From positions 5,022,001 to 5,086,000 of the forward strand of contig CM022670.1 in assembly GCA_012295275.1 (NCBI GenBank): a stretch of 64,000 nt of DNA, read 5' to 3'. This DNA comes from Chrysomallon squamiferum (taxonomy: Eukaryota > Animalia > Mollusca). Under the pieces are notes generated by a model. The model had not been told where the DNA came from, made no database searches, and worked only from the letters and a program-made list of their open reading frames with translations. Below, one piece after another: positions 5,501 to 6,548 of this stretch (the stretch's first letter is position 1; each line of letters starts with the position of its first letter). The translations under genes and the position numbers were made by a program.

Positions 5501-6548
5501 TATTAATTTATCAATAATTTTCACTTTCTTTACAATTCACAATTTTGTGTTTGTTGTTACTGCACTGTCTTTGTTTGTCAGAAATTTTATAACATTTAAA
5601 ACCTTTTTTGAACTTTAACCGCATAAAATTTTGTATTAAAAATAATTTATAGCACATTTCAAAAGAATAAAAAATGAAAAAATAAAGTGAAAAAAATTAA
5701 TAATAATAAAAGGAGAAGAAGAAAAGAAAAATAATAATAATTTTTGAAAGTAGATTTGATTTTCTTCTTTTCTTCTTGTAGTCTCTACTTCATGATCCGA
5801 ACCCTAATAGCCCAGCCAACAATGAGGCTGCCCAGTTGTATCGGGAAAACAGGCGTGAATATGAGAAAAAAGTAGCCGCAATTGTTCAGGAAAGTTGGAA
5901 TGATGATGAGGAAGAGGACTGCATGGCCTCTTAGCACAAGTCTCAAAATAATTAACTTTTCATGTAACATGGCACATTATTTTGGTAGTGGGACAGACGT
6001 GTAATGTTTTAGCTGTGTAAACTACCAATCCATCTACCAAATGCTTTATTTTTATTATTCTTTTTCTAAATTATTATTATTTTATTATTTTTTAAATTGT
6101 TGTCATTTTTGTCATAACCCACGAAGAAATTGGCACATACTGAACTTTTGGGTAAATCCATTTCCTATTTTCTATGTTTTTATTTTTTATTTGTTTTTTT
6201 AATTATTTCATATTTTTTATTTTTTTTACTTGATGATTATCTGTTATTAGGCATTTATATTTTCACTAGGCCAGCTTAGAGAACTAGATTTTAACAGTCC
6301 ATAGTCCATACTAAGTTCCTATCTTTCATTCATTTTTTAAAATTTTCTTTTTTCTTGTCTGTCTTTTTTTTTTTTTTTTAATTAAGCTTCATTACTTTCA
6401 GTCTTTGTTAGATGAACCTAACCCAAACAGTCCAGCAAATAATTTAGCTGCACAGTTATATCAAGAAAATCGTCGAGAATATGAAAAGAAAGTCAAAGTT
6501 GTTGTTGAAGAAAGTTGGATTTACCTTGGTGAAGTACCAGAACGTTGA
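2562..6548 (+). CDS. UBE2A: Ubiquitin-conjugating enzyme E2 Rad6 (UBE2A/B ortholog) with two alternative terminal exons
   Basis: Exons 2562-2605 ([15 protein letters not shown]), 2815-2895 ([21 protein letters not shown]), 4162-4277 ([17 protein letters not shown]) and 4599-4687 ([22 protein letters not shown]; catalytic Cys88), then either 5782-5934 (160-aa product) or 6402-6548 (158-aa product). All introns are GT-AG and the phases are consistent. Confidence 0.97.
5782..5934 (+). CDS. UBE2A: Rad6 terminal exon 5a (acidic-tail isoform)
   Basis: Acceptor tttcttcttgtag, then [50 protein letters not shown]; phase 0 matches exon 4. Confidence 0.9.
6402..6548 (+). CDS. UBE2A: Rad6 terminal exon 5b (non-acidic isoform)
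   Basis: Acceptor attactttcag, then [54 protein letters not shown] at 6582-6587. Confidence 0.92.

Follow-up and report, generated by a model that had tools for sequence, protein, structure and literature searches.

Few E2 enzymes are as conserved or as much studied as Rad6, which has roles in histone marking and DNA repair, and how one Rad6 enzyme is shared between Bre1 (H2B), Rad18 (PCNA) and the UBR ligases is an open question. The Rad6/UBE2A gene of Chrysomallon squamiferum, located on the forward strand of the 64,000-nt stretch of DNA analysed here (hereafter the window), has two candidate last exons, 5a and 5b, raising the question of whether a single gene makes two different enzymes. 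We consider it probable that it does: the two exons are intact and anciently duplicated, and exon 4 is spliced to 5a and, likely as a minor regulated alternative, to 5b, which would yield two forms of Rad6 that share the catalytic core but differ in their C-terminal modules. The features of the gene are as follows:

2562..2605, + strand: coding exon 1 of Rad6/UBE2A, with the ATG at 2562
2815..2895, + strand: coding exon 2 of Rad6/UBE2A
4162..4277, + strand: coding exon 3 of Rad6/UBE2A, with the HPN motif (residues 78-80)
4599..4687, + strand: coding exon 4 of Rad6/UBE2A, with catalytic C88 and a phase-0 donor for either last exon; its terminal bases are identical to the loose end at 5780 in 3/3 RNA runs
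5782..5934, + strand: last exon 5a, xD type (H114-D115, E125, R131), with a tail of 11 residues, 6 of them acidic; splicing observed
5935..6401, + strand: 5a-to-5b stretch, 3'UTR of isoform a and intron end of the predicted isoform b, lacking a canonical poly(A) signal
6402..6548, + strand: last exon 5b, DE type (D114-E115, L125, Q131), with a mostly hydrophobic tail of 9 residues, within the isoform a UTR; splicing suggested by relatives
6549..6870, + strand: common 3'UTR, with AATAAA at 6582 and 6776; contigs extend 252 letters beyond 6620, the right end being approximate

Exons 1-4 amount to 330 nt (110 codons), and all borders are of the GT-AG type. As described in the first-pass annotation of this DNA, the coordinates of which proved exact, 5a and 5b are each preceded by an AG, start in phase 0, code for residue 111 up to the stop codon, lie 620 bp apart and are free of lesions, and both retain S120-P121. 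The resulting proteins would be 160 aa long via 5a and 158 aa via 5b. The translation carries the HPN motif, C88 and S120 expected of Rad6/UBE2A-B, and PF00179 is matched with both last exons. The top PDB matches of exon 5a are UBE2B/UBE2A (E 2e-16 to 4e-15), whereas other E2 classes reach 8e-7 at best. Two homologous exons of the same phase are present in one gene, as in tandem duplication of a terminal exon, and tblastn found no second copy of exons 1-4 within the window.

Over the core (residues 111-149), 5a and 5b are identical at 31/39 residues and 83/117 nt, and 16 of the 31 common residues are specified by different codons, in agreement with the many synonymous differences seen at first pass. 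The comparison of dN and dS proposed there gave, by NG86, a dN of 0.15 with saturated dS, which fits an old duplication followed by selection at the protein level. Homology stops at the exon borders, with blastn of the flanks returning one 108-nt match over the exons and otherwise short, AT-rich matches. The eight core differences (residues 114, 115, 125, 131, 142, 143, 144 and 146) include two in the gate loop and four within 142-146, where 5b carries K142/V143/E146. Beyond W149, isoform a continues for 11 residues, acidic ones being found from 151 onward, and isoform b for nine, with Ile-Tyr-Leu-Gly at 150-153. Exon 5b had been called tail-less, but its nine residues form a conserved hydrophobic tail, and the b tails of molluscs follow a common pattern of hydrophobic, aromatic, any residue, Gly and acidic.

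Homologues were collected from the best 120 of 359, of 765 and of 1375 matches and from three clusters (at most 15 members listed each), giving a set of 413 proteins, two of which are the window's own exons. Each exon resembles the corresponding exon of other mollusc classes more closely than it does the adjacent one: the 5a core is identical to those of Sinanodonta and Pomacea at 39/39 residues and to that of Lottia at 38/39, whereas the 5b core shares 38/39 residues with Bulinus, 37 with Elysia, and 36 each with Nucella and Magallana. Because these matches extend across mollusc classes, the duplication predates the gastropod-bivalve split. First-type exons were also found in Octopus, a bryozoan, a rotifer and annelids, and their acidic tail is longer in several other molluscs. 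H114-D115 is present in 14/14 spiralian first-type rows and D114-E115 in 9/9 second-type rows, the rows having been grouped by this same motif, and E125 occurs in 13/14 of the former vs 1/9 of the latter. The differences that remain constant between the two types are at residues 114-115 and, with few exceptions, 131. Both copies are deeply conserved, and the duplication of the Rad6 last exon is real.

The search for tandem last exons in other lophotrochozoans, suggested at first pass, did find the pair. Among the matches listed, 17 proteins contain the last-exon motif twice, 16 of them in the order xD type then DE type. These 16 comprise 11 insect models and five spiralian proteins, namely those of Nucella and Elysia crispata, two Magallana models and one from a contig, with a tail like that of the annelid Dimorphilus. 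The 17th, P0123 from Toxocara, repeats exon 4 together with the same last exon and was set aside as a different kind of duplication. The two-copy proteins, which were read from protein models rather than from the DNA of those species, appear to be gene-prediction fusions revealing tandem exons. False proteins that combine both last exons in this way are frequent among public gene models (P0003, P0235, P0269, P0270, P0124-P0127 and P0297-P0305), and databases often contain either only one form or such a fusion. In a Sinanodonta model (P0008), exon 5a is joined to a neighbouring aspartylglucosaminidase gene.

Is either exon spliced in Ch. squamiferum? The region is contained in five runs, four of them RNA runs from one study. 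Transcripts were examined as contigs of three of these RNA runs, placed on 5765-6620, with junctions deduced from loose ends; the fifth run, which is not one of the RNA runs, gave no contig there. In all three RNA runs, a contig reaches the 5a acceptor carrying a loose end whose letters are those that close exon 4, and the contigs cross this join unbroken; isoform a is spliced. In two of the three, a single contig runs colinearly from 5a through 5b to beyond 6620. Because of this read-through, 5b lies inside the 3'UTR of isoform a, and the choice is consequently one between competing acceptors, as the first-pass annotation had supposed, and not the use of an upstream poly(A) site. Its statement that AATAAA is missing between the 5a stop and 5b extends to ATTAAA: in 5935-6401, only weak variants were found (one AAGAAA and two TTTAAA), the first AATAAA being at 6582, and with the read-through no site between the exons was recognized that would end the first isoform.

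The junction comparison proposed earlier (4687-5782 vs 4687-6402) thus gave a positive result for 5a, but no contig from any of the three runs enters 6402 with a loose end. Rare forms are lost from contigs, so that this absence indicates dominance of isoform a rather than lack of isoform b, which is at best minor in the sampled RNA. Both acceptors had been described as good. This holds for 5a, where 18/20 positions are pyrimidines and which is the stronger by such simple counts, but that of 5b, with 13/20 and an AG at -17, looks weaker. A step in contig depth in run X1 (69 before 5b and 149 over it) was considered as a splicing signal and rejected, as the contigs are interrupted at a run of T ahead of the 5b acceptor and not at the acceptor itself, and contig depth cannot rank the parts.

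For the spliced b form of the mollusc type, the direct evidence is limited to one contig-derived ORF and one Bulinus gene model, in which exon 4 is joined to b. The ORF, P0136 (158 aa, contig of 1458 nt), and P0282 (176 aa, contig of 1822 nt) are continuous in JGI contigs and identical over residues 1-110, P0136 having a b-type and P0282 an a-type end. Because the ORFs are continuous across the junction, they most likely represent spliced transcripts of one gene, although they may derive from two paralogues. A single-sequence AlphaFold model of P0136 (pLDDT 38) was discarded. Exon 4 sequence precedes 34/43 a-like and 9/31 b-like segments, with a further 3/31 in fused models (near-duplicates are included and cluster listing biases these counts). 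In the other 19 b-like segments, several of them near-duplicates, the residue directly before the exon start is Gln in 19/19, as part of Phe-Gln in 18, in line with a retained in-frame CAG acceptor and a rarer b form. The finding that would have undone the proposal of two isoforms, one exon only ever spliced and the other absent or degenerate in relatives, does not hold as a whole, as 5b is conserved in relatives.

Insects, too, show two such exons. Models of insect Ubc6 (E2-17 kDa) from Gryllus, Cotesia, Timema, ants, bees and a cockroach have two last exons and, as in mollusc Rad6, the xD type precedes the DE type. Unlike mollusc 5a, however, the insect first exon has S114 and a tail of 2-3 residues (in single-exon models), and the second, unlike 5b, has a longer, partly acidic tail. 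Because insects reverse the tail pattern, the contrast of an acidic with a missing tail, by which the two exons were originally distinguished, is too narrow and not the invariant. In several insects, NCBI names the DE-type products isoform X1 or X3, so that databases already contain part of the insect case.

In a tree built from 51 selected rows over 39 columns, one branch (support 91/93, not starred) unites 27 rows of the DE type (spiralian b, arthropod b, tardigrade, nematode, cnidarian and fish) and is set apart from the xD exons, although the columns conflict, with 114-115 and 131 sorting by exon type and 124 and 140 mostly by lineage. At residues 114, 115, 125 and 131, the rows of cnidarian, fish, nematode and chelicerate origin read D, E, L/Q and Q, a choanoflagellate row is mixed, and exon 5a equals three basidiomycete Rad6 proteins at H114, D115, E125 and R131. 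In AU tests on these 39 columns, 5a and 5b as sisters were rejected (p=0.003, the group having been named after the tree was seen), so that a recent duplication is rejected. With saturated synonymous change and counterparts in other mollusc classes, this bears out the earlier suggestion of an old duplication with selection on both copies. On the same 39 columns, a clade of spiralian and pancrustacean first exons gave p=0.31, spiralian a+b p=0.196 and arthropod a+b p=0.272; the tests reject neither one protostome origin nor separate spiralian and arthropod origins. Convergence between phyla is documented for tandem duplicated exon substitution in the available part of PMC9741552. Nevertheless, the common order of the two types in spiralians and insects favours one origin of the mollusc and insect pairs.

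Tentatively, and somewhat short of an even chance, we suggest that one duplication at or before the protostome ancestor gave one exon resembling that of fungi (xD at 114-115, basic 131) and one resembling that of vertebrates (DE, Q131), both of which would have been kept and switched by splicing in molluscs, some annelids and many insects, with one kept elsewhere and the leech Helobdella spreading the types over separate genes. Should this be correct, the Rad6 proteins of fly, worm and human carry non-equivalent C-terminal modules, which raises the question of whether the enzymes studied in model organisms stem from different exon copies. Helobdella robusta has three Rad6 models, on contigs that differ in size (P0250, P0263 and P0265), two with a-type ends and one with a b-type end, as if splice forms had been sorted into separate genes.

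As to mechanism, the exon 4 donor takes the strong proximal 5a acceptor by default, and the isoform a transcript continues across 5b, as part of its UTR, to poly(A) sites that would be common to both forms. Isoform b would arise when 5a is skipped and the weaker distal acceptor is used, and both stop codons would sit in the last exon. The part exchanged would comprise the active-site gate loop, helices 3 and 4 and the tail. In Saccharomyces cerevisiae Rad6, according to the parts of the sources available to us, the acidic tail raises H2B ubiquitination and also affects Rad6 stability, and acidic residues ending helix 4 are required for PCNA ubiquitination (PMC10550974); the gate loop is made up of residues 114-120, position 126 shows sensitivity to mutation and a requirement of 141-149 for Rad18 binding is cited (PMC9630792), whereas W149/E150 contact Bre1 (PMC10018343). 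Isoform a resembles the yeast protein in having acidic residues after W149 and in retaining the S120 gate, C88 and HPN, but lacks a long, mostly acidic tail of the yeast type (about 20 residues or more), its 11 residues, 6 of them acidic, being about half of the 20-23 in yeast and replaceable by an alternative exon (PMC10550974, PMC9630792, as far as available). Because the tails differ and the core differences fall in regions functional in yeast Rad6, the isoforms are predicted by analogy to differ in E3 and substrate preference: isoform a would favour H2B and PCNA ubiquitination like yeast Rad6, and isoform b would prefer other E3 partners or substrates. Human UBE2A/UBE2B, of the same family and the best PDB matches (E 2e-16 to 5e-16), share the DEPNP motif and Q131 with exon 5b, but are two genes, both of DE type, as opposed to one gene with two last exons. 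As they end a few residues after W149 (PDB matches), animals do not need a long tail.

Three other explanations have to be weighed. That 5b is left over from a tandem duplicate of the gene, or results from an error of assembly, might be entertained for a stretch without an independent DNA contig, but is effectively refuted by the lack of another copy of exons 1-4 in the window, by contigs of two RNA runs that span 5a and 5b colinearly and by the same pair in the same order in other species. Alternatively, 5b could be conserved in molluscs yet silent, or nearly so, in Ch. squamiferum, and be kept only as UTR of isoform a, as its position in that transcript, the weaker acceptor and the b join in none of the three RNA runs would have it. 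This seems improbable to us, given the near-identity to the Bulinus b exon and the maintenance of frame, stop, acceptor and family tail pattern in an AT-rich UTR, along with flanks lacking homology to those of 5a and the tendency of contigs to drop rare forms.

Finally, both isoforms might be made but be biochemically near-equivalent, the switch controlling the level of mRNA or protein through a shorter UTR or different stability. The influence of the yeast tail on Rad6 stability, the ~470 nt of UTR removed when 5b is used and the opposite tail polarity of insects would suit such a role; the residues specific to each type are, however, fixed across classes, and we hold it to be unlikely. Under the preferred reading, in which alternative last exons give two distinct enzymes, this gene provides two naturally paired enzymes whose catalytic core is identical and whose gate loop, helix 4 and tail are exchanged, a pairing older than the gastropod-bivalve split that makes the roles of these parts directly testable in animals.

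The class of events to which the Rad6 pair belongs is already known. Among human tandem duplicated exon substitutions, 77/236 affect the C-terminus, and such events are in many cases of ancient date and in some have arisen convergently in different phyla (Martinez-Gomez et al., 2022, PMC9741552, available in part). The Rad6 exons resemble them as homologous 3' coding exons in tandem by which the C-terminal region is exchanged, with the difference that here 5b lies inside the isoform a UTR and no canonical poly(A) signal separates the two. The main text of that paper makes no mention of UBE2 genes, and Ubc6/UBE2A/B are absent from one of its supplements. Likewise, Ubc6/UBE2/Rad6 are not mentioned in the available text of PMC9013439 (supplements aside), nor is 'ubc' in that of PMC3923563 or Rad6/Ubc6 in that of PMC5000498. 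Known human UBE2A splice forms truncate the domain (PMC1949830, available in part). Full-text literature searches, judged from titles and abstract openings, returned no description of duplicated Rad6 last exons, although subscription papers, the Kassiopeia database or supplements may list the insect case. What was not found in the literature is the Rad6 case, in an unusually central enzyme.

Beyond Rad6, the window contains the following genes:

about 9900-16300, - strand: exons of a UFSP2-like gene, tail to tail with Rad6, with a Peptidase_C78 match at 11605-11883
18768-19649, - strand: last exon of a sulfatase, presumably iduronate-2-sulfatase-like, with a weak SGSH_C match
24380-25054, + strand: uninterrupted thioredoxin/phosducin-like ORF of 224 codons, apparently intronless, which we take to be TXNDC9-like
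about 34400-40000, - strand: exons of a gene with B-box and NHL repeats (brat/TRIM-NHL-like)

Near 20.9 kb (20799-21098, + strand), a short piece of protein sequence similar to the sulfatase exon is found on the opposite strand, perhaps representing a small inverted duplication.
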